Shown in pieces: positions 2,879-23,688 of a stretch of 34,489 nucleotides of DNA (position 1 is the first letter of the stretch; every line of letters begins with the position of its first letter). The DNA comes from a virus (lineage: Duplodnaviria > Heunggongvirae > Uroviricota > Caudoviricetes). The stretch lies in IMG/VR virus record IMGVR_UViG_2541047695_000003. One strand, written 5' to 3'. Below the pieces are notes generated by a model. That model was not told the origin of the DNA. It saw only the letters and a list, made by a program, of their open reading frames with translations, and did no database searches. The translations under genes were made by a program, and so were the position numbers.

Positions 2879-2920
2879 CGCGAAGCGCTAACCAATTACT
2901 TCTAGTAACAACTAATTTAA

Positions 2921-3140: not shown

Positions 3141-3167
3141 ACTTTAATGATCATGAAAGGTATTGGT

Positions 3168-3197: not shown

Positions 3198-3289
3198 AAA
3201 TTGCTTCCTGATTATTATTTCTCCAAAAGAAAGATTATTATATTCTAAAGATACTTCTTCGTTTTGATCATAATTTAATCAAATCATGA

Positions 3290-3309
3290 AGGAGGGCTTT
3301 GCCCGACTG
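3290..3309 (+). repeat. Right copy of the 20-nt direct repeat
   Basis: AGGAGGGCTTTGCCCGACTG, 431 bp downstream of the left copy. Confidence 0.7.
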
Positions 3310-3346
3310 AATACAATCACCTTTCATAATAACAAGAATTTTCTCT

Positions 3347-3378
3347 TTATAAATAATAGTGAACTTACTTGATTCACT
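3347..3378 (+). promoter_or_regulatory. TTATAAATA box plus AGTGAA...TTCACT leader hairpin upstream of the first rightward gene
   Basis: TTATAAATA 3347-3355, AGTGAA 3358-3363, TTCACT 3373-3378; near-identical arrangement at 30229-30268. Confidence 0.5.
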
Positions 3379-8814: not shown

Positions 8815-10326
8815 ATGTTTAATCTTTTTCGACGCAAAAAGGCGGTAGAAACTCCAGTTAAAACTAATCACCGCCAGCAACAACCAAAAATTTTCATCGA
8901 TAAGCAAGTAGAAAAATTCCAGAAATCTCTGGCGACTCGTAGTTTAGGACTGGTTGGTGATCGTATTGATGGATCACTTCAACAAGACACCATTACAGGA
9001 ACCTTCAATAAGGCTCTCAAATCGAATGGTAAGCGCCTTTATGATCAGGGTCGTACTCTGGCCTTAAACACTTCCGTAGGCAGTCGCTACACGCAATACA
9101 TCACCGATATGGTGGTAGGTACTGGCCTAGATCCGAAGCCGTCAGTTGTTAAACCAAATGGAAAACTTGATAGCGCACTGAATAAGCAGATCGAGAATGC
9201 TTTCTGGAAGTGGGCGCAGAATGCTAAACGCTTCTCTCGCAATGGTCGTTTTAACTTCCGTGAATTGCTGGTAATGGCTGAACGTGAGCGCGTTATGGGT
9301 GGTGAGTGTTTCATCGTTTTAACTAAAGAAAACAATGAGTTAAATGTTTCTATCCTGTCTGCTGATAAATGCGACTGGTCGCTAAACCGTGAAATAAGCA
9401 AAGAGCGTGCGATATATCAAGGTGTGGAGTATGACGTAGAGACGATGAAGCCCGTAGCATACTGGTTTCGTAAAATCAACCTACTGACTCAGACCTACAC
9501 TGGTGATAACTATCGCGTCGATGCTTCGCAAGTATGCCATTATTATCAACCACTTGCGGCTGAATCCCTGCGTGGTGTGACTGACTTCCTGCCAGTGATT
9601 AAGGATATCGCACATCAAGACGCATTCCGCGAAACTGCGATCGTCCAGAAACGTATTGCGGCTAGTTCTATGGGCTTTATCGAACGTCCGAAAGATTCTG
9701 GTGACGATTTTGATACTGGTGAAGAGGATGAACAATATCAAGCGCCGGAAGTAGTACAGGATTTTGCACCTGGTACTATTCAGGAATTACCGGAAGGGGC
9801 AACGATCAAGAGCATCCAGGCGACGCAAAGCGGTGATGATTTCAAATCCTTTAACGATGCGATGTATGGTAGCGTCGCGATGGGCTTAGGCGTGTTTAAA
9901 CAGGGCTTGACTGGTGACACTAGCCAAATAAATTACAGCGCCAGTAGATTCGGTGATTTAATGCAACGACACCGCGTTAAAGCACTGCAAAACAAATTGA
10001 TTGAAACAGTGGTATTGCCAATTTTCGAAGCATATCTACGCCATTATTCCGCGCGTGGTATTGTTCCGATTCGTATTACTGCAATTCCGCATATTATCGA
10101 TAACACTACTATTATTCGTCCTCGTTTTGAATCCGTCGATCCATTTAAAGACGTAAGCGCCGAGATTGCTTTAATTGATAACGGACTTAAATCACGTACT
10201 GCCGTTATTCTTGAACGTGGTGATGATCCTGAAAAAGTATTCTCAGAGATTCAAGCCGAAAAGAGCGCACTAAATATTATCGTTAATGGCGAGGGTGAAG
10301 AAAAAAATTCCCCAGCCGATCCCTAA
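8815..10326 (+). CDS. Portal protein (lambda gpB-like)
   Basis: 503 aa, synteny TerL-W-portal-protease, AAGGGGTAA SD. Confidence 0.85.
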   Translation: MFNLFRRKKAVETPVKTNHRQQQPKIFIDKQVEKFQKSLATRSLGLVGDRIDGSLQQDTITGTFNKALKSNGKRLYDQGRTLALNTSVGSRYTQYITDMVVGTGLDPKPSVVKPNGKLDSALNKQIENAFWKWAQNAKRFSRNGRFNFRELLVMAERERVMGGECFIVLTKENNELNVSILSADKCDWSLNREISKERAIYQGVEYDVETMKPVAYWFRKINLLTQTYTGDNYRVDASQVCHYYQPLAAESLRGVTDFLPVIKDIAHQDAFRETAIVQKRIAASSMGFIERPKDSGDDFDTGEEDEQYQAPEVVQDFAPGTIQELPEGATIKSIQATQSGDDFKSFNDAMYGSVAMGLGVFKQGLTGDTSQINYSASRFGDLMQRHRVKALQNKLIETVVLPIFEAYLRHYSARGIVPIRITAIPHIIDNTTIIRPRFESVDPFKDVSAEIALIDNGLKSRTAVILERGDDPEKVFSEIQAEKSALNIIVNGEGEEKNSPADP

Positions 10327-10371
10327 TAACCAACGGGGGCGCAATGTCCCCAATTAATTAAAGGTGATTAA

Positions 10372-12372
10372 ATGCTTAAATTTCGCCGCGATCTTAACGG
10401 TTACGGTGGAGTTATTAACGAAGGGCATAACGATCAATACGAATTTGAAATTGCTTTCTCCAGTGAACAGCCGTATCAGCGCCAATTCTGGGATGAGCAA
10501 AATCAAGAGATGGTGGTACTAGATGAAATTCTGGTACATACACCGGAAGCGGTTGATCTGTCTCGTCTGAATAATAACGCTCCGTTGCTGTTCAATCATA
10601 ATTTCGATAATCATTTAGGTGTAGTCTGCGACGCTCGAATCGATGCGGATAACGTAGGTCGTGCTCTGGTTAAATTCTCTAAGCATGGCACTTTGGCTAA
10701 TGATATTCGCAATAAAGTCATTGAAGGTACGATGGAAAAAATTTCTGTCGGCTATGACATTAAAGAATATCACATCGATTACGCCAAAGGGCAATTGATT
10801 GTTACTAAGTGGGCGCCCTATGAACTCTCATTTGTCACCGTTCCTGCTGACGATACGGTCGGTTTAAATCGCTCTCTAAATACTATCACAGTTAATTTGG
10901 AGGCTAAACGCGATATGACTAAAGAACAAATTGAAGAAATCAAAGAAGAACAAGAATCCGCTCAGGTTGAAGAAACTCCGGTAGAAGAAATTAAAGAATC
11001 GGAAGTTGAAGAAACTCAAGAGCGCCAAGTTGAAGAGAATAAAGAAGATGAAAATCTCGAAGACGGAAAAGACGCTGAACATCCTGAAAGTGTTGATGAT
11101 GATAGTTCAACTGTTCGGGAAGAAGAAATAAAAGAAGAACGTGAAGCTGCTCCGGTTGAAGAAGAAAAAATCGAAGAAGTGGCTGAACGTTCCGAAGAAG
11201 ACGAATTAGAAATTCGCGAAATTGCACGCGAACTAAATATTGATGACGAAGAATTGAAACGCGCATTGGCAATTAAAGACATGACGCCGGAAGCATTCCG
11301 CACTAAGGCACTAAATAATCTCGTCAATGCTCAACGTAATAACGAACAAATTAAGGACTCTAAAATGGAAAAAACTTTTGACCTGAACAACGTAATTCGC
11401 TCTCTGGTAGATGGTGCTGCTCTGGGTGCTAACGAAGCTGAATATTCCTCTATGGCTGCTGGTGCTGCGATGCAGCGTGGTCGTGCTGCTCGTGGTGGCT
11501 CTGTATTCGTTCCGGCTGCTGCTCTGCGTGCTGCTGCTGATGGTAACACCAAAACTACTCTGACCGCTGTAACTGACGAAAAACTGATGACTGAATCCTA
11601 CATCGAAATGCTGATGCCGGAATCTGTTCTGGGTCGTCTGGGTGTGACTGTTTACAGTGGCTTGAACTCCCCGACCGCTATTCCAAAAATGACCGCTTCC
11701 AGCGTTGACGCTTTCGGCTTCGTTGATGAAAACGGTGCTGCACCGGAAAGCAAAGCTGAATTTGCGAACGTGAAACTGTCTCCGAAAACTTTTGCTGGTG
11801 GCAACCCGATCAGCCGTCAGTCGCTGAAAACCGTTCCGGGCATCGCTACCCTGATCACTGATCACATTAACAAAGCTGTTCGTATCAAACTGGAACAACT
11901 GATTCTGTCTGATAAAGAAAATGCTCGTGGTCCGGCTGGTCTGGTTAAGCAACTGGTAGACGCTAGCCGCGTTACCAAGAAAGCTGCTTTCTCTTATAAA
12001 GACTTCCTGAAAGAAATTGCAGCACTGACCGACGCTGGCGTTCCTGCTCAGGCGATCAAGTTTGCAATGAGCGGTGCAACTGCTGCTGAACTGGAATCTA
12101 CCCTGAAAGATAACGGCGTTTCCGGTTATATCATCGAAAACGGCAAACTGGCTGGTTACGAAGTAGTTACTTCTGGCGTTATCCCGGCAGACCACATCGT
12201 TCTGGGTGACTTCTCCGGTATTACTATCGGTGAGTGGGGAGGTCTGGAACTCGACATGGATCTAACTACATATAGGGATCGTGGTGCGGTAGTGCCTCGT
12301 ATCTTTGTAGATTTGGACTACGTTGTAGCACAGCCGGAAGCCCTGAAAGTTCTTCACATCTCCGCTGAATGA
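10372..12372 (+). CDS. Prohead protease - acidic scaffold linker - HK97-fold major capsid protein fusion
   Basis: 666 aa; N-domain resembles caudoviral prohead serine proteases; residues about 185-330 are E/K-rich; C-terminal 336 aa resemble the HK97-type capsid family. Confidence 0.9.
   Translation: MLKFRRDLNGYGGVINEGHNDQYEFEIAFSSEQPYQRQFWDEQNQEMVVLDEILVHTPEAVDLSRLNNNAPLLFNHNFDNHLGVVCDARIDADNVGRALVKFSKHGTLANDIRNKVIEGTMEKISVGYDIKEYHIDYAKGQLIVTKWAPYELSFVTVPADDTVGLNRSLNTITVNLEAKRDMTKEQIEEIKEEQESAQVEETPVEEIKESEVEETQERQVEENKEDENLEDGKDAEHPESVDDDSSTVREEEIKEEREAAPVEEEKIEEVAERSEEDELEIREIARELNIDDEELKRALAIKDMTPEAFRTKALNNLVNAQRNNEQIKDSKMEKTFDLNNVIRSLVDGAALGANEAEYSSMAAGAAMQRGRAARGGSVFVPAAALRAAADGNTKTTLTAVTDEKLMTESYIEMLMPESVLGRLGVTVYSGLNSPTAIPKMTASSVDAFGFVDENGAAPESKAEFANVKLSPKTFAGGNPISRQSLKTVPGIATLITDHINKAVRIKLEQLILSDKENARGPAGLVKQLVDASRVTKKAAFSYKDFLKEIAALTDAGVPAQAIKFAMSGATAAELESTLKDNGVSGYIIENGKLAGYEVVTSGVIPADHIVLGDFSGITIGEWGGLELDMDLTTYRDRGAVVPRIFVDLDYVVAQPEALKVLHISAE
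11365..12372 (+). CDS. Nested in-frame major capsid protein from an internal start
   Basis: AAGGA (11353-11357) 7 nt before the in-frame ATG at 11365; codon usage switches to gct/ggt/cgt/ctg from this point. Confidence 0.5.
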   Translation: MEKTFDLNNVIRSLVDGAALGANEAEYSSMAAGAAMQRGRAARGGSVFVPAAALRAAADGNTKTTLTAVTDEKLMTESYIEMLMPESVLGRLGVTVYSGLNSPTAIPKMTASSVDAFGFVDENGAAPESKAEFANVKLSPKTFAGGNPISRQSLKTVPGIATLITDHINKAVRIKLEQLILSDKENARGPAGLVKQLVDASRVTKKAAFSYKDFLKEIAALTDAGVPAQAIKFAMSGATAAELESTLKDNGVSGYIIENGKLAGYEVVTSGVIPADHIVLGDFSGITIGEWGGLELDMDLTTYRDRGAVVPRIFVDLDYVVAQPEALKVLHISAE

Positions 12373-12504
12373 ACTCCTGTAGAACCTTCTGAACCTTCCC
12401 CCGATTTGGGGGAAGAAAATCTGATTCCATCTCAGGAAGAAGAAGTTCAAGAGGTTACGGCGAAAGCCACAGTTAAAAAAGAACGTAAGACTAAAGCAAA
12501 ATAA
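12373..12504 (+). other. 43 in-frame sense codons after the capsid UGA, closed by TAATAA: candidate read-through extension
   Basis: Hand translation TPVEPSEPSPDLGEENLIPSQEEEVQEVTAKATVKKERKTKAK; no internal start with an SD; the terminator follows the extension, not the UGA. Confidence 0.35.
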
Positions 12505-12509
12505 TAATT

Positions 12510-12537
12510 AGCCCTGCCTTAATGGTGGGGCTTTTTT
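12510..12537 (+). terminator. Rho-independent terminator or attenuator after the capsid region
   Basis: 9-bp stem 12510-12518/12524-12532 (two G-U pairs) followed by T6. Confidence 0.7.
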
Positions 12538-12567
12538 GTATGTAAATACTCCATAAAGGGGGTAACT

Positions 12568-12858
12568 ATGTTCAAATTATCAGAATCACAATTATCAAGA
12601 ATGTTTCGAAGTGCTCCTGTATTTTCGGTGGAAGGTGGTAAATCAATTCGTGCTTATCATGAAATTACCACTACCGACGAACAAGGGGTAATTACAGAAT
12701 CAGAATTTCTATTTTGTCGTGAGGGAGACTTAAATCAGGGTGATGTTGTCATTGTAGACGGTGAACGCTTCAAAGTTCAATACGTTAAGCGCAATGGTGA
12801 TAATACTTCTGATTGCTTTATTGCTCGTGCAGGGGGTACACATGCTCGCTACCGTTAA
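12568..12858 (+). CDS. Head-tail adaptor or head-closure protein
   Basis: 96 aa directly after the capsid gene; GDVVIVDGERFKVQYV motif typical of head-tail joining proteins; AAGGGGGTAA SD. Confidence 0.7.
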   Translation: MFKLSESQLSRMFRSAPVFSVEGGKSIRAYHEITTTDEQGVITESEFLFCREGDLNQGDVVIVDGERFKVQYVKRNGDNTSDCFIARAGGTHARYR

Positions 12859-13264
12859 TAATATGCCTAGACTGAAAATTAAACGCGCCTTGCAGGATAT
12901 TATCGAACAAGATTTAGGTCTGGCTTTAAACGTAGAACAAACTCAGCAAGGCTTTAGTGATGATGTGGTTTGTTGGATTACCGGAATGAATGAGACTTAC
13001 AATAGGGTCCGTGGTGGTAATGCAATGCAAGCTGAATGCGTTATCGAAATGCAGTTGTATTCTCAGAATCATGAAACCAAAATTCATGAGGGTATTTGCC
13101 AGATAATCCAGATTCAGCCTGATAATCCACGTTTTAAAGATTTGGGCTTCTCTATTTCAGATATCACTCCAGTAGCTTCTAATACCGATTATGACGATGA
13201 TTCTAGTGATGGGGGTATCGTTGGGACACTTAGCCTTAAATTTTCTTATCTAGCGCGTTTTTAA
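12842..13264 (+). CDS. Neck or tail-completion protein
   Basis: Start chosen at ATG 12842 (AGGGGG SD, 17-nt overlap with the upstream gene) rather than 12761; ATG 12863 is an alternative. Confidence 0.65.
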   Translation: MLATVNNMPRLKIKRALQDIIEQDLGLALNVEQTQQGFSDDVVCWITGMNETYNRVRGGNAMQAECVIEMQLYSQNHETKIHEGICQIIQIQPDNPRFKDLGFSISDITPVASNTDYDDDSSDGGIVGTLSLKFSYLARF

Positions 13265-13273
13265 GGGGTAATA

Positions 13274-14107
13274 ATGAATATTACACAAGATAACTTAGAC
13301 ATTTTCACGGGGTCACATGTTGAAGTCTCCGTGTCTACTATGGTGGATAACCAGCCGGACTTTTTCGATCCTGCATTTAGTCCTATCGAGAACATCGCAG
13401 CATTCCCGACGATAACCGAATCCACAGAGATCCAGACGTTAGAAGAGTATGATCAGGACGCTACGGGGAAACTTGCTGGTTATCGTAAACTTGAATCAAC
13501 TACGTTAGTAGTAAACCGTGTTCTGGATGACGAACATCAAGACATGTTGATGAAAGCGGTGAATGATAAAACTCCTTTACGCTTTCGTATGTTCTATGTT
13601 GTGAACTCTGGCTATAGTGCTGCTAACACAGGTTACTACGTCATTTTTGACGCTTATGTCTCGTCACATAAAACAAAATCCGGTGATAACAAAGTTACTA
13701 CAATCGAGTTTAAATTAGAACCTGATGGCGGGATTCTAGATCGCGGTATTGCTACCGAAGGCCGGATCTTACGTCAAGGTGATTTTGGTTTGGGCGCTGG
13801 TGTACATCCATTCACAGGTCCGATTGATAGCGAAGCATTAGCCGGAAACCGTTTCGTAACTTATCAGGGATCGAGCGTATCTAATCCATTTAGTGCTGAT
13901 ACTTCACTAATTCACGTTCAACCTAATGAAGATGGTGGATGGCAATTAACTTGCACCGCTTCCGGCGCACCACGTTTACGAGTTCGCACAGTCCAGAAAG
14001 ACGGTAATTCTGGATGGGTGAAAGTGTATTCCACAGAAGAAAAACCGACACCAGCCGAGATTGAAGCCGTTTCTATCCATGACCGGATCGACTTCGGGGA
14101 ATACTGA
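13274..14107 (+). CDS. Tail-tube (major tail protein) paralog with a C-terminal fibre-like domain
   Basis: Residues 1-155 align by eye with the 156-aa tube protein (DIFTG/DIFSG, AAFP, LMKAVND/LIKATED, ...DG); C-terminus shares the KPTPAEI block and preceding segment with the fibre. Confidence 0.8.
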   Translation: MNITQDNLDIFTGSHVEVSVSTMVDNQPDFFDPAFSPIENIAAFPTITESTEIQTLEEYDQDATGKLAGYRKLESTTLVVNRVLDDEHQDMLMKAVNDKTPLRFRMFYVVNSGYSAANTGYYVIFDAYVSSHKTKSGDNKVTTIEFKLEPDGGILDRGIATEGRILRQGDFGLGAGVHPFTGPIDSEALAGNRFVTYQGSSVSNPFSADTSLIHVQPNEDGGWQLTCTASGAPRLRVRTVQKDGNSGWVKVYSTEEKPTPAEIEAVSIHDRIDFGEY

Positions 14108-14180
14108 TTGCTTCTCTAAATAAAACATGACGCGGGAGGTTAACGCCTCCCTTATTCCTGTTTTATAGTGAGGTGATTCG

Positions 14181-17100
14181 ATGCAGTCGATCCAATTTAA
14201 ACGAACAAATGTTTCTGGCAAAAAACCAACGCCGGAACAATTACAGGTCGGTGAGGTAGCAATCAACCTTAAAGACCATGTTATTTTTACCAAAGACCGA
14301 GATCATGAAGTAGTTCAAATCTCTGTTTCTCCTGAAACTCACGCGGCACTAGAATCTAAAGTTGATGCTAATAAAAAAGAACTGGATAGCACAATTGCAG
14401 TAAATGACCGCAATATTCACGCTAAAGTAGATGAAATTAAACAAACTACTGATGCAACCATCGCAGCAAATCACGCAGAAATTAACAATAAAGTTGATGT
14501 AATTAAACGCGAAACCGACGCGACAATCGAGGCCAATAAAAATAAAGCTGCTTCCGATCTTGCTGGTGTTAAAGCTGAATTGTCGGATACCATCAACGCT
14601 AATAAAAATGCGGCTGCTGTAGCAACTCAGGAACTGGACACCCGCATCAATAAAAAAGTTGATGATATTAAATCCCGTACCGATGCAACCATCGCAAGCA
14701 ATGACAAAGCAATCAATGACAAAGTTGATTTGATTAAGGCAGAAACTGACCGCACTATCGCAGCAAATCACGCCTATGCGGAAAATCAGTTAACTGACAC
14801 CTACAATAACCTTACTGGTGTGATTGCAGCCAATAAGCAAGAGGCAGCGGATAACGTCGCAGCATTAACCCGTGATGTTGAAGCCAAAAATACAGCAATT
14901 CATAGCAAAGTTGACAATAACAAGTCTTACACTGATTCTGAATTGGCACGTTTAGAAAGCCGTATTGATGCAGCCGATGGATCTGCTGATGGCAAGTACA
15001 TCAAAAAACACGTAAACACTTATACTGATGGTTATTTGCTGTCTAAGACCGCAAACTATTTTGATGATCCAAATGCGCGTAATCTTGATTACTTTGGTGC
15101 ATTCCGCATGAATGACCTGGCGGGTCATATTGCAATGATCTTGCATGTTCCGCATCCATCTGGTGTTAATCATGCTCGTGGCTTCGAGTTCACTTATGGG
15201 TCTAATCCACATGCTACTGTAAGAACATACGGCTATGATGAATTGGGACATTTGGCATATTCTCACCGCATGTATCATGAAGGTGATAAACCTACTCCGG
15301 CTGAAATTGGCGCATATTCGAAAGCAGAAATTGACCGACTGTTCCAGAAGACGCTTAATTTTGGTATCGAGGGTGGTTGGTTTAAACTAGGCACTTTGAC
15401 AATGCCACAACAACACGGTCGCACGGCTAAGATCCGTTTGGTTGGTGGTAACGGTTATAACGTAGGACATAATGGACAAGCCAATATTATCGAATTGGTG
15501 ATTCGATGCGGCAACAATAGCCCGAAAGGTGTTGTATTCAATGCGTATTATACTATTTGGCATCATGAACAACATTTTTGCGCTATTCCAACCGATGGCG
15601 ACAATTACGATCTTTACGCTTACTACGGTGCACATACAGGATTTGTTTTAGCAGAATATCAAGTTTCTTCCGGTGGTGTTTCTTTAAACCTGTTGGATAC
15701 TCCTGAATATCTGGGTGGTGAAAAACCTGTTGCAGATGAAATTTTTGATGCTCTTAACATTTCATCGTTCAATAACTTTAGCAACCGTGGGACGTTAAAT
15801 TTTGCTGGCAATCATCAAGGCCAATATGATATTGAGCATTTAAACGAACAACCGACAAATGCTAAAAAGATGTTGCGTCGCTTCCGTAGTTGTGCACCAG
15901 CTACAATCTGGCATGAGACAGTTGATGATAACGCATATCGTCTTGCTACTGGATACGAAGATACAAATCAGGAATTATTGCTGTCAGCAACATCCGGGTT
16001 ACATGTCAAGAAATTAACATTGGATGGCGGTGTTACTGGAAATTCTGGTATTGATATTCGTCGAGGACCAAACGAATCAAGCCATTTTAATTTCATGGAT
16101 TATCGCACTGGACAAGATGTTCGTAATGGCTGGTTTGGCTTCGGTGATGGTCAGACCAAAGATTTTATTTGGTGGAACGATAACGGTCAAAACTCTATAA
16201 ACCTGATTGAAGATGGTGAATTGCATATTACTGGCGGTAAAGGCCAGAAAATTGTAATGAATAGCGAAGTTGCATTATCTGAAAATGCTCGTTTGGCTGT
16301 CAAAGGTGGTAACTATGGTTTAATCCTTCGTAATGATGGTTCTAGCTTCCATATTCTTACTACCGATTTAAAAGATTCCTTTGGGACGTGGAACACTCGT
16401 AGACCATTTAGTTATGATTTCGCCGAAGGTGGATTAGATCTAGGTGGCACAGCTACCGCACGCTGTTTACATCTGGGAATTGATGGTAGCACCCGCATCG
16501 AAGATAATATGGTGTTTAGATCAGGGTCTCGTCAGTCAATGGACTATATTGAATTAATCCATTGGGGTAACAGTAATACCGCTCGTAACAACGTTTTGAG
16601 TATGAAAGACTCGAAAGGATTCCTTGCTGAATTTGAACGCGTGGGGGGTACTAACGGCGTTAAAACCAGATTCTTTGGCGAAACATTCACTGACGGTACA
16701 TTATACCTAAATCAGATGAATAATAGCTCTGAACGATTCTCTATCAATAACTGGGGAAATTCAGAAGTTGGTCGCGCGGCAGTGATGGAAGTCGGTGATT
16801 CCAAAGGTTATCACTTCTATACTGAACGTAGGACAGATAACAGTTTGATGTTTGATGTTGCTGGCGCTTTTACTGTGCATGGACCTTCCGGGATTACTAT
16901 CAAAAACTCTGCTGGTGCTCGCCACGTCTGGTTTAGAGATGATAGCGATACGGAAAAGGCTGTTATCTGGGCTACAGATGAGGGTATTTTACATATTCGC
17001 AATAACCACGGTGGACAATTTACACATCACTTCCAGGGCGCGATGATTAAACTGGAAGGGCGTGTTCCTTATGCCGCAGATCAAGGACTTATCCGTGGTG

Positions 17101-17705
17101 AGGTTTCTGGTGGTGCATATGTTGCATGGAGAGACCGACCTGCTGGTTTGTTGGTTGACTGTCAACAAAGCGTTGATAGTGCTCATGCTATTTGGAAAGC
17201 GGTTGATTGGGGGCGTAACTACATCGCTGCTATGGACGTTCATTGTCCCGGTGATAGTAATAATACTGCGGCAGCGGTTCTTCATGTTCAGGGTGCTGAT
17301 TATCAATTCCATGCAAGTGGAGAATTTCATGCCACTGGTAACGGAAACTTTAACGATGTTTATATTCGTTCCGATCGTCGTCTGAAAATTAATGTTGAAG
17401 ATTACGAAGAAAATGCGGTGGATAAGGTAAATAAACTCAAAGTTAAAACCTACGATAAAGTTAAATCTCTTAATGACCGAGAAGTTATAGGTCATGAGAT
17501 TGGTATTATCGCACAGGATTTACAAGAGGTATTACCGGAAGCTGTTAAAACCGCAAAAATTGGTGGTTTTGATAACCCAGAAGAAATTTTAACAATTTCA
17601 AACTCCGCAGTGAACGCGCTTTTAATTAAAGCGGTCCAAGAAATGAGCGAAGAAAATAAACTTCTTCGTGAACGTCTTGCTGCAATTGAAGCTAAATTAG
17701 GGTAA
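14181..17705 (+). CDS. Tail fibre with N-terminal anchor, coiled-coil repeats and a C-terminal self-cleaving chaperone domain
   Basis: 1174 aa; MQSIQFKRTNVSGKKPTPEQLQVGEVAINL fibre N-terminus; about 6 repeats of KVDxIKxxTDATIAxN; C-terminal SDRRLK motif. Confidence 0.9.
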   Translation: MQSIQFKRTNVSGKKPTPEQLQVGEVAINLKDHVIFTKDRDHEVVQISVSPETHAALESKVDANKKELDSTIAVNDRNIHAKVDEIKQTTDATIAANHAEINNKVDVIKRETDATIEANKNKAASDLAGVKAELSDTINANKNAAAVATQELDTRINKKVDDIKSRTDATIASNDKAINDKVDLIKAETDRTIAANHAYAENQLTDTYNNLTGVIAANKQEAADNVAALTRDVEAKNTAIHSKVDNNKSYTDSELARLESRIDAADGSADGKYIKKHVNTYTDGYLLSKTANYFDDPNARNLDYFGAFRMNDLAGHIAMILHVPHPSGVNHARGFEFTYGSNPHATVRTYGYDELGHLAYSHRMYHEGDKPTPAEIGAYSKAEIDRLFQKTLNFGIEGGWFKLGTLTMPQQHGRTAKIRLVGGNGYNVGHNGQANIIELVIRCGNNSPKGVVFNAYYTIWHHEQHFCAIPTDGDNYDLYAYYGAHTGFVLAEYQVSSGGVSLNLLDTPEYLGGEKPVADEIFDALNISSFNNFSNRGTLNFAGNHQGQYDIEHLNEQPTNAKKMLRRFRSCAPATIWHETVDDNAYRLATGYEDTNQELLLSATSGLHVKKLTLDGGVTGNSGIDIRRGPNESSHFNFMDYRTGQDVRNGWFGFGDGQTKDFIWWNDNGQNSINLIEDGELHITGGKGQKIVMNSEVALSENARLAVKGGNYGLILRNDGSSFHILTTDLKDSFGTWNTRRPFSYDFAEGGLDLGGTATARCLHLGIDGSTRIEDNMVFRSGSRQSMDYIELIHWGNSNTARNNVLSMKDSKGFLAEFERVGGTNGVKTRFFGETFTDGTLYLNQMNNSSERFSINNWGNSEVGRAAVMEVGDSKGYHFYTERRTDNSLMFDVAGAFTVHGPSGITIKNSAGARHVWFRDDSDTEKAVIWATDEGILHIRNNHGGQFTHHFQGAMIKLEGRVPYAADQGLIRGEVSGGAYVAWRDRPAGLLVDCQQSVDSAHAIWKAVDWGRNYIAAMDVHCPGDSNNTAAAVLHVQGADYQFHASGEFHATGNGNFNDVYIRSDRRLKINVEDYEENAVDKVNKLKVKTYDKVKSLNDREVIGHEIGIIAQDLQEVLPEAVKTAKIGGFDNPEEILTISNSAVNALLIKAVQEMSEENKLLRERLAAIEAKLG
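17370..17702 (+). other. Peptidase S74-type intramolecular chaperone auto-processing domain of the fibre
   Basis: SDRRLKINV...IGIIAQDLQEVLPEAV...LLRERLAAIEAKLG matches the endosialidase / T5 L-shaped-fibre C-terminal chaperone pattern. Confidence 0.75.
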
Positions 17706-17743
17706 TTGGAAAGCGGGGAGAAATCTCCGCTAAGGATTCTTAT

Positions 17744-18040
17744 ATGGGATATTGGGTAAGTAGTGAAATTAATACTAAAATCGATGCTTTAAAATGGCAT
17801 GTATTTGATATTCCTAACGGCTATGGTACTGCTCGTGCTGGTGTCGCTGTAATGCGTCATAATGCTGGTGGTGGGTGGTCTGATGCACATATTAACGTAG
17901 ATGGTTTGACCGTTGCTCGTCGTCGTGGTGGGACCAATTGGGGATCTACTATAAATTCGTTTGTTCCTGCTGGCTGCACCGTCTCCTTTGGTTTAGGGGG
18001 TGAAGGTGGTGTTGAATATTTTAAATTCATGGAGTTTTAA
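17744..18040 (+). CDS. Small Gly-rich protein, FDIPNG paralog 1 of 3
   Basis: 98 aa; conserved xW, FDIPNG(W/Y), GL, WG, V(S/T)F, YFKF blocks shared with the next two genes. Confidence 0.85.
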   Translation: MGYWVSSEINTKIDALKWHVFDIPNGYGTARAGVAVMRHNAGGGWSDAHINVDGLTVARRRGGTNWGSTINSFVPAGCTVSFGLGGEGGVEYFKFMEF

Positions 18041-18042
18041 TT

Positions 18043-18348
18043 ATGGCTGGATGGATAAATCAAAGAATGTCAAACGCTATTAGTATTTGGGCTAATGGTG
18101 GATATTTTGATATCCCCAACGGCTGGGTTACTGATTCATGCGGAATTGTTTTTGCTCATATGGAAGCCATTAACGGTGCTGGTGATCTTGATTCTGAATT
18201 GGCTGTAAATGGATTGATTGAATCAGGTCATCATGCTGGTGATGCTGGGAGTTGGGGCGCTAGTTCTTTAGTTGGCGCTGGTGCTACCGTTAGCTTTACA
18301 TTGGGTAAAGGTAGTTTGCATTATTTTAAATTCAGGAGAATGCACTAA
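18043..18348 (+). CDS. Small Gly-rich protein, FDIPNG paralog 2 of 3
   Basis: 101 aa; starts 2 nt after the paralog 1 stop. Confidence 0.85.
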   Translation: MAGWINQRMSNAISIWANGGYFDIPNGWVTDSCGIVFAHMEAINGAGDLDSELAVNGLIESGHHAGDAGSWGASSLVGAGATVSFTLGKGSLHYFKFRRMH

Positions 18349-18650
18349 TGGCATTTTGGGTAGATGGCGCTTTGGGGAATAGGGCGGGTAAAGCAAATCA
18401 AGGATGGTTTGATATTCCTAACGGTTGGACAGCCGACGCTTTCGGGACTATTTCATTCTGTGCTCATTCTTCCGGTGGTGGCGGTGGTGACTCTGAATTG
18501 CTTATTCATGGTTTGTGTGTTTCTGGAAGCCATAAGGGTCATGATTGGGGACAGATTCATTCTTGTATTGCACCGCAAGGGGCGGTAATTACCGTTAGCA
18601 CAAATAGGGGGATCGCTCATCTTCGTTATAGACGTTTGAGCAACCGCTAA
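18348..18650 (+). CDS. Small Gly-rich protein, FDIPNG paralog 3 of 3
   Basis: 100 aa; TAATG overlap with paralog 2. Confidence 0.85.
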   Translation: MAFWVDGALGNRAGKANQGWFDIPNGWTADAFGTISFCAHSSGGGGGDSELLIHGLCVSGSHKGHDWGQIHSCIAPQGAVITVSTNRGIAHLRYRRLSNR

Positions 18651-18704
18651 ATAAATAGAATTACGGGTATGTGCCCTATTGTTTAAAATAGAAGGAAAAG
18701 AATA

Positions 18705-19175
18705 ATGACTACTAAATTTGATATTTTTTCTGGTGGCCTCGTTGGTCTGTTTCTGCATGAAGAAGTAACTAACACCGATCTTGACAGTGAAAGCTATCTG
18801 GAAATTCCAGAATGTGCGGCTTTCCCGGAAACTGGTGTAGAACGTTCTACTATCGATGTTCCTAACTTCGGTGGTCCGTATAACCGTAAGCTGGTTGGTC
18901 GTATGTCTGTACCGGATATCGAACTTTCGATCAACTACATGCCGGGTAACGAAGTACACGAAAAACTGATTAAAGCAACCGAAGACGGTAAGCGCGTACA
19001 GCTTAAAATTGCTTACTACATCGACGCTACGAAAAAATCTGGTGTACATATCGCTTATAACGGCTTCCTGTCTAAAACTACCATGACTGGTGGTGAGGAT
19101 GCTGTAGTAGGCCGTACCTTCACCTTTGTAGTAGATGGTGCTCCGGTTAAACAAGCTGTTTTCCAGAAACTCTAA
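18705..19175 (+). CDS. Major tail (tube) protein
   Basis: 156 aa, highly optimised codons, directly upstream of the G/T chaperones, followed by an attenuating terminator. Confidence 0.85.
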   Translation: MTTKFDIFSGGLVGLFLHEEVTNTDLDSESYLEIPECAAFPETGVERSTIDVPNFGGPYNRKLVGRMSVPDIELSINYMPGNEVHEKLIKATEDGKRVQLKIAYYIDATKKSGVHIAYNGFLSKTTMTGGEDAVVGRTFTFVVDGAPVKQAVFQKL

Positions 19176-19183
19176 TATTATCT

Positions 19184-19208
19184 AGCCATCCTTCGGGGTG
19201 GCTTTTTT
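19184..19208 (+). terminator. Rho-independent terminator or attenuator after the tube gene
   Basis: AGCCATCC-TTCG-GGGTGGCT followed by T6. Confidence 0.8.
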
Positions 19209-19257
19209 GTTTCCAATTCTAAATAAACATATCTAATTAACTTAAGAGGAAACAATA

Positions 19258-19566
19258 ATGAATATTAATGAAATGTTAGCCGCACTTTCTCCGAAACGCG
19301 AATCTCTGACCATCGGTGGATTTACTTTCTATGCTCGCCCTATGTCAGTAAAAGAATTTAACGAACATGTTTTCAATACCGATAAAGAAGACCGTGATGA
19401 ACGTTCTATTCTTCGTTGTATTGAAGATGAAGACGGTAAGCCAGTATTTGAATCTATTGAACAAGTTAAGGCACTGTATACTAACGTCCGCAGTGAATTA
19501 ATCGGTTTGGTTGCTCAAGCGTCATTGATGCAAGATCCGGCGGTAATTGAAAACGAGGTAAAGTAA
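19258..19566 (+). CDS. Tail assembly chaperone (gpG-like)
   Basis: 102 aa between the tube protein and the tape measure. Confidence 0.8.
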   Translation: MNINEMLAALSPKRESLTIGGFTFYARPMSVKEFNEHVFNTDKEDRDERSILRCIEDEDGKPVFESIEQVKALYTNVRSELIGLVAQASLMQDPAVIENEVK

Positions 19567-19937
19567 ACCCGCTTCTGAATTTCTATTTCCGGCAAATGAT
19601 GAGATCGGGGCTTAGTAAAGATGAAATGGATAATATGCCAATCACTCTATTTTGGAAATTATACATTTTCGACACCTACTTAGAACCACAAAGCCCCGCG
19701 TTTCATGATATGCAGAATGCGATGTTGCAATATTCCATGTATATGACGTCGCAAGGAATGACACGCGAAACTGCAAAGAAACTCAAGCCTAGCCAATTCC
19801 AATTAATTAGAGAAGAAAAACTCTTTAAAACTAAAGAAGAACTGGAAGAAATTGCACGCAAGAAAGAAGAAGAACGTAAAGCGGCAATGCTGAACATGTT
19901 TGATCCATCTTTGCTTGAGAAACTCAGAAGCGGTTAA
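19258..19937 (+). CDS. Tail assembly chaperone G-T fusion by a predicted -1 frameshift near 19558-19564
   Basis: The -1 frame is open from 19551 to 19937; the overlap window is only 19551-19563 (AAACGAGGTAAAG) just before the G stop TAA. Confidence 0.55.
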
Positions 19938-19948
19938 AGGGGTAATTT

Positions 19949-22378
19949 ATGACAAAACATATAGTAACAATAGAAGGGGATAATAAAGGGCTAAAGAGAA
20001 GTACCAATGAAGCCGCCGACCTTCTCGATAGTTTGTCTGAAAAGGCAAGTAATATTGATTTTGGTGGTGGCTTATCTGGTCTGACTGGATCTCTTCGTGG
20101 GATCGCTGGCTCTGCTGGTTTAGCTGCTGGTGGTATCGGCTTAGTTGCGACCGCAGTGGTTGCAGCCGCTAAAGCTGGCGCGGAATACGTTAAACAATAT
20201 TCAGAAGTATCTAAGGCGACCGGACTCTCGATTGAATCCCTTCAAAGACTGGAAAAGGAATTTTCTGGTACTGGCCTAACAGTTGAAAAATTCGGTGATA
20301 TCAACAAAGACACCTTAGATAAGATGGGTGATGCATGGGCTAACGGTGGTGGTATTGCTGATGACTTAGAATCGGTTGGCCTTAAGTTAGAAAACTATGC
20401 TCACTTCATGACTGATCCGCAAGGTGGTATGAAAGCGGCGATCCAAGTGTTCTATGACATGAAGAAAGCCGGAAAATCAATGGCTGAAATCAAGTTCATG
20501 ATGGAATCTTTAGCCAGTGATTCAAGCCATATGACCAGCCAGCTTGAGAAATATAATACTGCTCAAGAGGCGATGATCGCTATTCAGAATCAATCTGTTA
20601 ACGTCACCGAAGAAAACGCTAAAAAATATGATAAATTTTCTCAAAATATCAATAAGCTGGAAAATAACCTGAAAGGTGTCGGTATGACCATTTCTGGTCC
20701 GCTGGTTGATAGTTTAAACTGGTTATTTGACTGGTTTAATATTGATTGGGAAAAGAGTTCTCTATTCAGGGCATTAGATCGACTGAATAAAGAAGGCAAG
20801 ACCGCAACTGGCGGTATTCTTAACGCCAACCATAAAGACGCTCAAAAAATTATTGACAAGTACAATAAAGAAAAGCGTTGGAATAATCTGGCAGATTGGG
20901 AAAAGGCCGCGATCCGTGGTGCTGGTGTCGATCCTCGTACTGCTGGCTTTGATGTTGAAGGATTTAAGAAACGTTTTGGTGATTCTTATAAGAAAAATGG
21001 CTCTCTGATTGTTGTCGATAACGGGGAACATCTAACCCGCAAGGCAGATCCTAACCGTGATTTGACTATACCAAATAAACCAGTAAGACCAGAATCATTG
21101 GGTAAGTCTGGTAATGAGAAGAAAGCCGAAGAAGAAGCACGCAAGAAAGCGGAAGAGGCAGCTAAAAAGGCTAAGGAAGCCGCAGAAAAAGCACAGAAAG
21201 CACGCGAGGATGCAATCAAGCGACTGAATGCACTTGATGTTAAATTGCAAGGGCAAGTTGCAGCGTCTATCACTTCTCAAAATAGCCAGTTGCAAAACAG
21301 CTTAAAAGATGTGAACGACGCGTTAGCTCTGGGCTTAATCTCTCAGGAAGACGCAGCCGCGAAACGCCAGGCGCTAATCGATCAGAATACTGAAAACGTT
21401 TATAAAATGATGTTGGGTGCTGATCCGATTGATGCTCTGAATGCTTTAACACAATTGCAACAAATCAGGGACAACGAGCTAGAAAGCCATAAACGGTTAC
21501 TTGATGGTAAAGCTATCTCCTACGAAGAATATATGCGTCGTGTGAACGATACCGAGCAAAACTATTCTCAGATTGAAAATTCTTTACAGGGAATGGATGG
21601 TTATAAAACCAATCAATTAACTAGTAGTTATGATTATCAAGACTCAAATAATCCGTTTGCTAAATTTAATGCAATCGATAAAGAGAAATCGGATGCTGAA
21701 CAAGATTATAAGACCGATAAACTCAAGATTGATGGGATCACCGATCCGGCTAAACGGATGGAAGCATTAGAAAAACTCAATGAAAACCATCAAAAACGAA
21801 TGGCTGCAATTGAGAAGAAATATGCTGATGCTCGCCAGTCAATAGCCGATGATATGTACGGCGGTTTTGCTGCTGCAATGACTCTCTTCGGGCAGGAAAA
21901 CACTAAAGCTATGCAGATGGCTTTCAATGCTCATAAAGCATTCTCTATCGGACAAGCGACGGTGAACATGTGGACGGCTGCTACCGATGCATGGAACGAT
22001 CCGACCAACGTCACCACAGGTCAAAAAATCGCGGCTGCTGCATTGGCTGTTTCTCAGAACATGGGGAACATCGCAAACATCAAGTCTACTAACGTTAGCG
22101 GTATGGCTCATGATGGTATTGATAACATCCCTCGTGAGGGTACATGGTTGCTTGATAAGGGTGAACGAGTAGTTGATCAGCGTACTAACGGTGATTTGAA
22201 AGACTTCCTTGCTGCTCAAAAATCAGGTGGTGGTAACTCTCAGCCGATTGAAGTTAATGCGCCTTTGAACATTAACGGCAACGTTAATAGCTCAGACAAG
22301 ATGGTCATGGATGCTATCAAACGTCACGCTAAGTTTGTTGCTCAGGCGATAGAAGACGTTCAGCGTCGTAAGATGTAA
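19949..22378 (+). CDS. Tape measure protein
   Basis: 809 aa, Gly/Ala hydrophobic segments, long coiled-coil and low-complexity KKAEEEARKKAEEAAKKAKEAAEKAQKA, position after G/T. Confidence 0.9.
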   Translation: MTKHIVTIEGDNKGLKRSTNEAADLLDSLSEKASNIDFGGGLSGLTGSLRGIAGSAGLAAGGIGLVATAVVAAAKAGAEYVKQYSEVSKATGLSIESLQRLEKEFSGTGLTVEKFGDINKDTLDKMGDAWANGGGIADDLESVGLKLENYAHFMTDPQGGMKAAIQVFYDMKKAGKSMAEIKFMMESLASDSSHMTSQLEKYNTAQEAMIAIQNQSVNVTEENAKKYDKFSQNINKLENNLKGVGMTISGPLVDSLNWLFDWFNIDWEKSSLFRALDRLNKEGKTATGGILNANHKDAQKIIDKYNKEKRWNNLADWEKAAIRGAGVDPRTAGFDVEGFKKRFGDSYKKNGSLIVVDNGEHLTRKADPNRDLTIPNKPVRPESLGKSGNEKKAEEEARKKAEEAAKKAKEAAEKAQKAREDAIKRLNALDVKLQGQVAASITSQNSQLQNSLKDVNDALALGLISQEDAAAKRQALIDQNTENVYKMMLGADPIDALNALTQLQQIRDNELESHKRLLDGKAISYEEYMRRVNDTEQNYSQIENSLQGMDGYKTNQLTSSYDYQDSNNPFAKFNAIDKEKSDAEQDYKTDKLKIDGITDPAKRMEALEKLNENHQKRMAAIEKKYADARQSIADDMYGGFAAAMTLFGQENTKAMQMAFNAHKAFSIGQATVNMWTAATDAWNDPTNVTTGQKIAAAALAVSQNMGNIANIKSTNVSGMAHDGIDNIPREGTWLLDKGERVVDQRTNGDLKDFLAAQKSGGGNSQPIEVNAPLNINGNVNSSDKMVMDAIKRHAKFVAQAIEDVQRRKM

Positions 22379-22384
22379 TTAAAA

Positions 22385-22426
22385 GCCCCCATAGTGATAA
22401 ATAATCATAAAACTATGGGGGCTTTT
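22385..22426. terminator. 10-bp hairpin with A-run and T-run flanks; also sequesters the SD of the next gene
   Basis: GCCCCCATAG (22385-22394) / CTATGGGGGC (22413-22422), 18-nt loop, TTTT, then ATG at 22429. Confidence 0.65.
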
Positions 22427-22428
22427 CT

Positions 22429-23642: not shown

Positions 23643-23688
23643 TCCCTTCTCCCTAAGCCTAGTAAATAACAGCATGGAGGTATTCAAC

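Follow-up and report, generated by a model that had tools for sequence, protein, structure and literature searches.

In the siphoviruses lambda and T5, the fibre genes come after the tip genes. Side fibres are anchored at the tube-distal tail protein junction both in T5, by means of p140 and p132 (PMC10038345), and in Ur-lambda, by means of Stf (PMC12617516), and the T5 authors describe p140 and p132 as confined to T5-like phages (PMC10038345). In the long tail fibre of T4, the N-terminal region of gp37 is bound by trimeric gp36 (PMC3004832), and gp38 of the S16/T2 type docks via three Trp-tipped helices (PMC6851490).

The locus described here belongs to a virus with a lambda-like tail module and lies within a window of 34,489 nucleotides, the whole stretch of DNA that was analysed. 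The five open reading frames that the first-pass annotation had read as a fibre module are all present with the neighbours it assigned (Table 1), and its view that the position is unusual for a siphovirus is shared here. Upstream are an FII-like gene, whose match to Pfam Phage_attach (E 2e-5, 25.4 bits) narrowly misses the cutoff of 26 bits, and a 140-aa neck/tail gene that had no family match in profile searches, and downstream the tube gene is followed by G, T and the tape measure. The 156-aa tube protein has in addition a weak Pfam match, under the curated cutoff, to the lambda tail tube family; in one metagenome relative, L006, the tube protein is 251 aa long and has a C-terminal extension. 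Overall, the five genes probably represent a conserved side-fibre locus from temperate lambda-like siphoviruses of Enterobacterales that form an uncharacterised lineage.

Table 1 Features of the side-fibre locus and its surroundings, in window coordinates.
Feature	Position	Strand	Remarks
Tube paralog, putative fibre-anchor protein (gene 1)	13274..14107	+	277 aa
Domains of the putative anchor			residues 1-160 tail-tube fold; 160-250 conserved Gly-rich middle; 250-277 gp36-like C-terminal 'plug'
Plug KVYSTEEKPTPAEIEAVSIHDRIDFGEY	14021..14107	+	extreme C-terminus of gene 1 product
CTAAATA box	14116..14122	+	instance of the intergenic TAAATA motif found across the operon
Hairpin GGGAGG-TTAACG-CCTCCC	14134..14151	+	GC-rich, followed by T-rich tail; downstream of CTAAATA box
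Fibre gene (gene 2)	14181-17705	+	1174 aa
Socket, gp37-type N-terminal domain	14181..14333	+	fibre residues 1-51, MQSIQFKRT..GEVAINLKDHVIFTKD
Lineage-specific helical shaft	14355..14975	+	residues ~59-265; 22-residue KVDxIKxxTDATIAxN-type repeats
T-even gp37-like shaft and tip	15045..17369	+	residues 289-1063
Gp34_trimer domain (Pfam PF21446)	16110-16415	+	residues 644-745
S74 intramolecular chaperone	17370..17705	+	residues 1064-1174; predicted cleavage before Ser1064
Hairpin AGCGGGGA-GAAA-TCTCCGCT	17712..17731	+	between fibre gene and small paralog A
Small paralog A	17744..18040	+	98 aa; G37-3 homolog 99% identical
Small paralog B	18043..18348	+	101 aa; AlphaFold: N-terminal helix, then beta-sandwich
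Small paralog C	18348..18650	+	100 aa; ATG overlaps TAA stop of B
CTAAATAAATA box	18647..18657	+	overlaps stop codon of paralog C
Major tail tube protein (context)	18705..19175	+	156 aa; PHROG 158, E 3e-20; canonical tube gene directly 5' of G/T

The claim that the first gene encodes a tube paralog is backed by a BLASTP match to the window's own tube protein (E 3e-4), by the match of both proteins to PHROG 158 'major tail protein' (E 2e-10 for the paralog) and by the AlphaFold fold. Residues 13-160 are modelled with a pLDDT of 80-94 as the tail-tube fold of lambda gpV and Hcp, with beta-sandwich, helix and long hairpin. The top Foldseek matches are the tube proteins of lambda (gpV), 80alpha and SPP1, long lumen hairpin included, with a Foldseek probability of 1.0 against 7t4f, 6v8i, 8k36, 6yeg and Hcp1. 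The C-terminal 115 residues are predicted at low confidence, with pLDDT below 50 for residues 163-235. Proteins of this family, which are also encoded in Salmonella, Providencia and Edwardsiella, measure 275-281 aa across Enterobacterales; longer versions of 465-698 aa carry fibre-like repeat inserts ahead of the same C-terminal motif, and those of DCP80 and of metagenomes have 190-420 additional fibre-like residues.

The extreme C-terminus of the paralog (residues 250-277) aligns end to end with residues 469-496 of the 496 in Krischvirus gp36 (E 3e-5), a short match of 28 residues. The C-terminus of T4 gp36 reads QDFGYY, and an [IV]D[FL]G motif forms the end of the paralog in every locus read. 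The fibre begins with the gp36-binding type of N-terminal region found in T-even gp37, as its socket matches residues 4-54 of G37-3 gp37 (E 2e-13) and its residues 1-64 match residues 4-61 of T4 gp37 (E 4e-13) in BLASTP. The pairing of a gp36-like end with a gp37-type N-terminus recurs at every junction read: in the Proteus locus an extra 198-aa spacer has a socket at its start and MDFGTF at its end, and is followed by a protein that is again socket-first. The minimal loci L018 and L019 have two genes, the paralog and the fibre only. No gp34, gp35 or gp36 gene is found at the locus, and the fibre has a tube-fold protein as its partner; what is encoded is thus not the gp34-gp35-gp36-gp37 fibre of a myovirus baseplate. 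Because the paralog has a gp36-like C-terminus, the fibre has a gp37-like N-terminus and gp36 binds gp37 in T4, the tube paralog is most likely the fibre anchor, a role that can be assigned to it with reasonable confidence. [quoted passage not shown] Such tube-paralog mounting is most likely a newly seen variant of side-fibre anchoring.

It is improbable that the 277-aa protein is instead an additional tube subunit that bears a decoration and is interspersed in the tube, as is gp17.1* of SPP1, which has a tube fold with a C-terminal extension, so that fibres (or nothing) would be borne along the tail and the true fibre anchor would lie elsewhere. The combination of tube fold and extension does recall lambda gpV and SPP1 gp17.1*, and the hairpin that had been noted after the gene is found and is terminator-like, with comparable hairpins at 12510-12532 after the capsid gene and at 19184-19203 after the tube gene. 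However, this reading leaves aside the gp36-like C-terminus that is paired with a gp37-type N-terminus in every locus, the 190-420 extra residues of the DCP80 and metagenome proteins would be implausible in a bulk tube subunit, and the canonical major tube slot is held by the 156-aa protein.

For a tube paralog that anchors the fibre, the location of the ring has also to be considered. By synteny (W-like, FII-like, 140 aa, paralog) the gene lies roughly in the slot of lambda gpU, a single small protein separates it from the FII-like gene, and lactococcal 936-type phages offer a parallel, their neck passage structure being encoded near the tube gene. The ring could accordingly be head-proximal, with the paralog serving as the tail terminator or stacked beside it and the fibres being neck fibres, one of the attachments suggested by the first-pass annotation, yet this is unlikely, since the best structural matches are to tube proteins, lumen hairpin included, and not to terminators, both solved side-fibre anchors of siphoviruses with Gram-negative hosts lie at the tube-distal tail protein junction, and a fibre of ~1060 residues has easier access to the cell when mounted at the tail tip.

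Past the socket, the fibre continues into a helical shaft in which the predicted number of about six KVDxIKxxTDATIAxN repeats is borne out, a regular-expression search placing the starts of six KVDxxK repeats at residues 60, 82, 104, 159, 181 and 243. The shaft has a weak Pfam match to Apolipoprotein (11/22-mer helix), and its equivalent in Proteus is the separate 198-aa protein. The remainder of the fibre belongs with T-even gp37: the protein matches PHROG 1699 (E 2e-136), and from 15045 on the DNA is 77-99% identical to gp37 regions of the T-even-related Krischvirus, a homology that runs through the fibre gene's distal three quarters and the three small genes up to 18666. Over 15045..17369 the identity is 77-94% to gp37 of Krischvirus and Tequatrovirus, G37-3 is 84% identical over 15045-18666 and has an equivalent of the 17712..17731 hairpin, and KFS-EC reaches 99.4% over 17335-18011. 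The expected S74-type chaperone at the C-terminus is likewise found, as Peptidase_S74 (PF13884) scores 55.9 bits against a cutoff of 22 over residues 1064-1123 of 1174, and the S-x4-K dyad is present as IR^SDRRLK, with Ser1064 (nt 17370) and Lys1069. The dyad is kept in sister loci and G37-3, and the domain aligns to the S16 gp37 fragment in PDB 6F45. From these features the chaperone would be expected to fold the fibre trimer and then to cut itself off before Ser1064.

Among the relatives examined, namely 55-58 E. coli genomes, Proteus, a Salmonella-like contig, the metagenome and the DCP80 block, the locus is placed between the 140-aa gene and the tube gene in every case. In nearly all of them, conservation of the backbone extends to the tube paralog and to the initial 230-370 nt of the fibre gene; nearly all E. 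coli relatives have query positions 1 to about 970-1105 in common and diverge past that, and in sister prophages different tips and accessory genes occupy this place. What the compared sequences show directly are homologies, synteny and mosaic breakpoints, and a conserved locus with a mobile distal part is very strongly indicated. Anchor and socket would thus stay with the backbone, and the parts distal to residue ~289 would be swapped with lytic T-even phages and among prophages, a recombination that would alter host range. The earlier description of a five-gene unit inserted between neck and tube genes does not hold for a paralog and fibre N-terminus that are conserved with the backbone at a position universal in the lineage, and the idea of a mobile receptor-binding cassette is retained for the distal fibre and the three small genes only. 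It had also been allowed that the placement might be universal and already characterised in the genus of this phage; universal it is, but no isolate in the phage collection has this backbone, as a megablast search of 50,697 phage records with 22 kb of the window as query returned T-even gp37 regions only.

It is therefore very improbable that all five genes entered the space between neck genes and tube gene together, as one mobile cassette. The placement is indeed unusual in comparison with lambda and T5, the DNA identity to T-even phages is high and TAAATA boxes lie near both ends, but in 50+ E. coli genomes and in distant relatives the backbone, the paralog and the fibre N-terminus are conserved jointly, the T-even homology begins only within the fibre gene, and nine of the 11 operon gaps contain the TAAATA motif. 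Both CTAAATA boxes that had been noted for the module exist, the one at 14116 recurring at the same spot in L004, L005, L010 and L012. They are not specific to the module ends, because the TAAATA core is present in 9/11 late-operon intergenic gaps (shuffles: mean 0.93, maximum 5), and the CTAAATA 7-mer is not enriched in the whole window (12 copies against 7.3 +/- 2.5 expected). The homology to G37-3 continues past the box at 18647. In some sister prophages the locus harbours IS elements or homing endonucleases, and part of the lineage is therefore decaying.

The three small genes take the gp38 position, 3' of a gp37-type fibre gene. Their products had been called paralogs, which their mutual identity of 25-39% and an FDIPNG motif common to all confirm. 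Each is predicted to form a C1q/TNF-like beta-sandwich preceded by an N-terminal helix with an invariant Trp. Searches of Pfam, PHROG and NCBIfam gave no match, and nothing in common could be detected with the true gp38 genes of TO6 and L012. An assignment as T2/S16-type gp38 was rejected, as these are three chains of ~100 aa with no family match and not a single chain bearing hypervariable segments, glycine-rich motifs and an attachment domain of three helices. In the phage collection the paralogs are confined to three T-even phages, each of which has three copies adjoining gp37; one of these phages, G37-3, has the paralogs, and a T2-type gp38 was not found anywhere in its genome. In the TO6 prophage the mature fibre tip is near-identical and is accompanied by a T2-type gp38 in place of the paralogs and by a scar ORF in which a T-even gene start is fused to the tail of paralog C; this prophage may be a non-functional recent recombinant. 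Remnants of paralog C persist in TO6 and KFS-EC, and in loci with a KFS-EC-type tip the accessory gene is absent or decayed.

The A-B-C order is retained in Salmonella and L020 prophages, and the coding regions abut or overlap, which argues for three non-redundant subunits made together. A role of the paralogs as the tip adhesin, and with it their presence in the virion, appears plausible, at somewhat short of even chances. More tentatively, the translationally coupled A, B and C would replace the gp38 adhesin by assembling 1:1:1, each contributing one Trp-bearing helix and one C1q/TNF-like beta-sandwich, and would cap the matured fibre tip and bind the receptor. The resulting heterotrimeric knob may, with the same reserve, be seen as a 'split' functional stand-in for monomeric gp38 on a gp37-type tip, with one Trp-tipped helix in each of three equivalent pockets, shared through recombination of prophages of temperate siphoviruses with lytic T-even phages. 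It is rather doubtful, though still worth weighing, that the paralogs lie outside the virion tip as assembly or folding helpers, or that they form three alternative homotrimeric tips with mixed specificities. T4-type gp38 and lambda Tfa, which are encoded at the same position, are chaperones (PMC3004832), and the variable positions of the paralogs fall only weakly in the putative distal loops. Against this, the fibre already has its own S74 chaperone, the paralogs alternate on a near-identical tip with a T2-type adhesin and not with a chaperone, and their order and their abutting or overlapping arrangement are fixed in E. coli, Salmonella and T-even loci.

In comparison with known systems, the locus follows the T-even gp36-gp37-gp38 arrangement of T4, T2, S16 and Krischvirus. 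The fibre is homologous to gp37 from the gp36-binding N-terminus up to and including the S74 chaperone, a domain also present in S16 gp37; the partner protein of the fibre has a gp36-like end, and accessory genes occupy the gp38 position. Unlike in the T-even fibre, gp34, gp35 and a baseplate are lacking, it is a tail-tube fold that carries the gp36-like end, ~210 residues of helical repeat shaft are inserted past the socket, and three small paralogs without a polyglycine sandwich replace gp38. With S16/T2-type gp38 (PDB 6F45; PMC6851490) the paralogs share the slot and, in the sister prophage, a near-identical gp37 tip. Their three Trp-bearing N-terminal helices, with W-[IVM]-x-x to be compared with GWIGSS, RWMSQ and CWMSQ in gp38, add a resemblance of short motifs. 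However, gp38 combines a beta-helix and a polyglycine sandwich in a single chain of ~260 aa, whereas the paralogs are separate chains of ~100 aa with a predicted jelly-roll, and no sequence homology was detected between them. C1q/TNF-like trimeric knobs, such as the gC1q A/B/C heterotrimer, BclA and P5 of PRD1, are likened to the paralogs by predicted fold; the paralogs have ~80 residues as opposed to ~130, no C1q or TNF sequence signature is found in them, and they are free-standing instead of ending a collagen or fibre chain as its C-terminal domain. If true, a heterotrimeric knob would be a class of phage receptor-binding tip previously undescribed.

The T5 p140/p132/pb1 collar (PMC10038345) employs a duplicated tube protein for side-fibre attachment, as the present locus would, and shares with it an S74-ended fibre, although the proteins of the locus have no detected sequence similarity to T5 proteins. 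In T5, p140 is undecorated and pb1 is held via a separate Ig-like dodecamer of p132, whereas here the paralog itself bears the putative docking end and would be linked to the fibre by a gp36/gp37-type joint; the two-gene loci L018 and L019 have no candidate for a third, p132-like Ig-like collar protein. Ur-lambda with its Stf (PMC12617516) is similarly temperate and lambda-like, a siphovirus that has side fibres next to a central fibre of the J type, the side fibres having an N-terminal attachment domain, a coiled coil and a distal domain; distal side-fibre parts are exchanged with T-even gp37, and lambda stf-tfa is homologous to T4 genes 37-38. Stf, however, forms its own dodecameric N-terminal collar around the gpV/gpM junction from a gene 3' of J, whereas the present fibre has a gp37-like N-terminus and a separate tube paralog, both encoded 5' of the tube gene. 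An E. coli prophage family thus appears to mount a T4-type long tail fibre on a non-contractile tail via a spare tube protein, and the knob together with the anchor of tube paralog and gp36-like plug would, if true, constitute a third way to mount siphovirus side fibres, next to those of T5 and Ur-lambda.

Synteny with relatives shows the fibre locus to be a conserved part of its lineage, and the proposal of the first-pass annotation that a module had been inserted between the neck genes and the tube gene is therefore not borne out; the gene coordinates and sizes, Ser1064 at nt 17370, the six KVDxxK repeats, the hairpin at 14134-14151 and both CTAAATA boxes all agree with that annotation. In every relative read, the tube paralog is followed by at least one fibre gene, placed between the 140-aa gene and the tube gene. 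This order is found at the E. coli loci L004, L005, L010-L012, L018 and L019, and outside them in Proteus mirabilis, a metagenome contig, the Salmonella-like contig L020 and the structural block of the Escherichia phage DCP80 record; homologs of the paralog additionally occur in Salmonella, Shigella, Providencia and Edwardsiella. Nearly all matches in E. coli genomes have the paralog and the first 230-370 nt of the fibre gene in common and diverge beyond, into parts annotated variously as tail-fibre, pyocin-knob, S74 or head-spike-fibre domains, and the smallest locus consists of the paralog and a fibre gene (L018 and L019). That an entire lineage has this locus upstream of its tube gene appears to be new.

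Several relatives carry NUMOD3 and GIY-YIG homing-endonuclease genes as well as IS421, IS3, IS903B, IS1 and IS5 inside the matched region, and several have them within the fibre locus proper; examples are the sister prophages NZ_CP080126, NZ_CP024134, NZ_AP042682, NZ_CP042903 and NZ_OW848980. Temperate lambdoid structural operons do not usually contain homing endonucleases, whose presence here is consistent with traffic to and from T-even phages.

The 277-aa protein is, as first annotated, a true tube paralog, aligning with the 156-aa tube protein in BLASTP (E 3e-4) and matching PHROG 158 as the latter does. Its AlphaFold model is confident at residues 13-160, and the top Foldseek matches to the model are the tubes of lambda (gpV), 80alpha, SPP1 and monocin, and Hcp; for the C-terminal 115 residues the pLDDT is too low for interpretation. 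The last 28 residues, KVYSTEEKPTPAEIEAVSIHDRIDFGEY, align end to end with the last 28 of Krischvirus gp36, ELYHEGHKPTPAEVGAVPLNAVIDFGTF (E 3e-5), the C-terminus of T4 gp36 being ...QDFGYY. The first ~50-60 residues of the fibre in turn resemble the gp37 N-terminus (residues 1-51 against the Krischvirus G37-3, E 2e-13; residues 1-64 against T4, E 4e-13), and in T4 it is the N-terminal region of gp37 that is bound by trimeric gp36 (PMC3004832). At all loci of the lineage the paralog ends in a plug of the form [IV]D[FL]G-x-x and the next protein starts with an IQFKR...GE.AIN..D socket. The rule of plug end followed by socket start is supported by Proteus, where an extra 198-aa protein, made of a socket, a 22-mer repeat helix and a terminal ...MDFGTF, precedes a 675-aa gp37-like protein that is again socket-first, the equivalents of the two being joined as one chain in the window. 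It is likewise supported by the paralog of DCP80 (698 aa) and two metagenome paralogs (465 and 482 aa), in which 190-420 fibre-like residues are inserted and the terminal motif is retained. From the gp36-like end and the gp37-like fibre start at every locus we conclude that the 277-aa paralog would take the part of gp36, and it is quite probably the anchor of the fibre, presumably in direct contact with it.

The 156-aa protein we take to be the bulk tube subunit because its gene stands immediately before G/T, in the canonical slot of the tube gene. The tube proteins of the E. coli and Proteus loci are bare (~153-168 aa); the counterpart in the metagenome relative L006 (14729-15484, 251 aa) has a C-terminal extension that looks Ig-like by eye. 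Neither the anchor profile nor the 140-aa protein had a real match among PDB sequences, and Pfam, PHROGs and NCBIfam yielded nothing usable for the 140-aa protein, the fibre socket or the C-terminal half of the anchor. The socket profile matched only designed beta-propeller 'bagel' repeats in the PDB, which were rejected as spurious.

The earlier suggestion of a mobile receptor-binding cassette holds for nt 15045-18666, where homology to T-even phages is found, but not for the paralog and the start of the fibre, which are conserved in relatives. From nt 15045 (fibre residue 289) to 18666 (16 nt past the last small gene) the DNA is 84% identical to G37-3, while 17335-18011 is 99.4% identical to phage KFS-EC and 16660-17660 is 87-94% identical to many Tequatrovirus gp37 genes. 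The exchange of gp37 and gp38 between T-even phages and lambdoid side fibres is reportedly classical, said to go back to Montag et al. in 1989, Haggard-Ljungquist et al. in 1992 and Hendrix & Duda in 1992, and S74 chaperones on fibres are well known.

The direction of one such transfer is indicated by the E. coli TO6 prophage (L005). Ahead of the predicted cleavage site its fibre is like that of the window, the two final alignment blocks there showing 43/48 and 48/50 identical residues; past the site it has a T2-type chaperone end followed by a 259-aa gp38 adhesin. In a 70-aa ORF (L005 11613-11825), the nine first codons, MVYNIIIGA, of the gene found downstream of gp38 in T-even phages are joined to the 53 C-terminal residues of paralog C. 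This ORF is a recombination scar and shows that a T-even-derived gp38 cassette landed in a locus that formerly held the three small genes, and thus pointing to transfer from T-even phage to prophage. In KFS-EC, a single 107-aa 'hypothetical protein' after gp37 (L002 6855-7178) has A fused out of frame to a piece of C, with B deleted; the three small genes are decaying there, and this phage has another type of fibre tip. The E. coli 2017.18.04CC prophage also encodes a 168-aa gp38-like 'receptor recognizing protein' (L012 12059-12565), whose gene comes after the tube gene and does not directly follow the fibre gene.

DCP80 (PQ671644.1), classified as a T4-like Gaprivervirus, alone in the phage collection has a related structural block and would, if real, be a remarkable hybrid. 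It has two rIIA genes, two copies of each exonuclease subunit and two spackle genes, and the duplicated T4-like genes adjoin a 26-kb lambda-like structural module. Because T4-like genes are duplicated and inverted in it, two phages have probably been assembled chimerically into one record; it was not accepted as evidence of a true T4/siphovirus hybrid behind the exchange, and comparisons were confined to the 26-kb siphovirus block.

The three small paralogs are tightly packed, with 2 nt from the A stop codon to the B start and the C ATG overlapping the B TAA, and form a narrow family of 35 clusters in a word-indexed search. An exhaustive profile (HMM) search of 1.84 billion representatives, in which fusions of the domain to fibre C-termini were sought, returned only ~15 real relatives, each a free-standing protein of 97-129 aa; the matches also included four long proteins, with NHL, ankyrin or Ig repeats, which were rejected as multi-stretch spurious matches. 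Pfam, PHROGs and NCBIfam gave nothing usable for the three proteins. The phage collection has them in G37-3, G2248 and UPWr_E1 alone, three copies in each, and in G37-3 the three genes directly follow gp37, in the usual place of gp38. Since some Krischvirus phages have gp38 ~55 kb away, the whole of G37-3 (167,832 bp) was searched for a T2-type gp38, and none was found at E <= 10 beyond noise. The A-B-C order is kept in the Salmonella and L020 prophages, each time after a fibre gene, that of L020 with an S74 domain, and at loci with a KFS-EC-type tip the accessory gene is absent or only a decayed remnant.

The S16 gp37 carries the same S74 chaperone as the fibre, and the monomeric S16 gp38 docks by three helices whose conserved Trp tips enter three equivalent pockets of the gp37 trimer (PMC6851490). 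In every small paralog Trp4 is invariant and belongs to a single N-terminal helix, its W-[IV]-x-x context resembling GWIGSS, RWMSQ and CWMSQ of gp38. By this analogy A, B and C may be an adhesin on the fibre tip, although we hold this reading tentatively, and more doubtfully they might cap the matured tip in a 1:1:1 ratio. Conservation covers the putative fibre-facing turns and an FDIPNGW motif, with somewhat greater variability in the putative distal loops, which is weak backing for such an adhesin cap; the small proteins may instead have chaperone roles or form three alternative homotrimers. The literature searched held no description of the three proteins, which as an alternative to gp38 thus appear to be new. 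Any receptor prediction from genomes that is keyed on gp38 would miss them, and their occurrence in isolated lytic T-even phages (G37-3, G2248 and UPWr_E1) should make genetic tests possible.

The CTAAATA boxes are present as first described, but the module is not delimited by them. Over the whole window the 7-mer shows no enrichment (12 against 7.3 +/- 2.5 expected) and its TAAATA core is found in 9 of the 11 intergenic gaps of the late operon (mean 0.93 gaps and maximum 5 in 5,000 within-gap shuffles), and a cassette boundary or module-specific promoter was accordingly rejected. The core precedes the next start codon by 16-64 nt and often closely follows a terminator-like hairpin with a T-run, with the same layout in relatives, and is probably a promoter-like element of the whole operon. 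The motif resembles the T4 late promoter TATAAATA, which occurs exactly in the DCP80 block at places equivalent to the boxes of the window, and in G37-3 a hairpin and then CTAAATA precede gp37; the window showed no gp55-like sigma factor. Elsewhere, an ORF-poor, low-GC stretch at ~1970-3369 holds an iteron-like array of about ten TTTTTGCCCCTGAAA-like units with one inverted copy, and several palindromic TACTAGATGAT(A/T)CTAGA boxes, which could be origin, cos/pac or operator sites.

The phage is temperate, and its structural operon, on the + strand and including the five fibre-locus genes, is lambda-like, with the domains found in relatives of the 666-aa capsid protein indicating a putative protease-capsid fusion. 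Of 5,426 complete E. coli chromosomes, 58 match the 14-kb stretch 10000-24000 with identities of 90-97%, and no plasmid matches it. E. coli ETEC1717, ETEC1718 and PK8568 are among the lysogens with an intact copy, their module being 97% identical. A 22-kb query of the phage collection matched T-even gp37 regions only, with no backbone relative; the lineage is therefore common as a prophage and uncharacterised as a virus. The closest terminase, in the DCP80 record, is 43% identical, and the literature searched contained no description of the prophage lineage. Rfam and tRNA scans of the window gave no match. Its GC content is ~41-42%, the roughly 51% of E. coli being well above this.

Features of the window with their coordinates
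Feature	Position (nt)	Strand	Remark
Iteron-like array	2522-2716, 2759-2775		
Further motif sites	2920-2946, 3056-3078, 3116-3139		ORF-poor stretch
Rha-type regulator	4390-5196	+	upstream of terminase
TerL	6327-8234	+	structural operon
W-like connector, then portal		+	structural operon
Capsid protein, 666 aa	10372-12372	+	relatives with Peptidase_S78 and Phage_capsid domains
FII-like protein, 140-aa protein		+	upstream of the five fibre-locus genes
Tube paralog, 277 aa	13274-14107		
Fibre, 1174 aa	14181-17705		
Small paralog A	17744-18040		
Small paralog B	18043-18348		
Small paralog C	18348-18650		
156-aa tube protein, G, T, tape measure, distal tail protein, J-type tip protein	18705-19175 (tube protein)	+	downstream of the five genes
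Endolysin			after J-type tip protein in the operon
Integrase (large serine recombinase)	31344-33038	-	opposite strand to structural operon
TAAATA motif, mostly cTAAATAa	8266, 8291, 12543, 14117, 18648/18652, 19220, 22398, 23663, 27916, 29117		

To our knowledge, side-fibre anchoring in siphoviruses of Gram-negative bacteria has been solved in two ways only, the p140/p132 collar of T5 and the Stf collar of lambda. In T5, the tube paralog p140 is ringed by a p132 dodecamer at the junction where the tube meets the distal tail protein, and the authors of that study state that other siphoviruses must anchor their fibres differently (PMC10038345); in Ur-lambda, twelve Stf N-terminal domains are located at the same junction (PMC12617516). 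By analogy, a distal collar is our first guess for the position of the anchor, and a hesitant one. A neck or terminator position is unlikely, yet a real alternative, because by synteny the paralog lies roughly in the gpU slot and the 140-aa protein belongs to no recognisable family. If the anchor formed a hexameric ring and its plug trimerised like gp36, two fibres per ring would be the simplest stoichiometry, which is speculation.

Were the paralog indeed the anchor, it would explain the ready passage of receptor-binding modules between lytic T-even myoviruses and temperate siphovirus prophages, with identities here of up to 99.4%, and would suggest a portable joint for host-range engineering. 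T5 provides a precedent for a tube paralog in fibre attachment, whereas a tube fold fused to a gp36-type end, as a single-protein anchor in a lambda-like phage, appears to be new. The lineage would thereby present a third anchoring solution beside those of T5 and lambda, one legible from sequence, in which a tube paralog with a gp36-type plug may take any gp37-type fibre.
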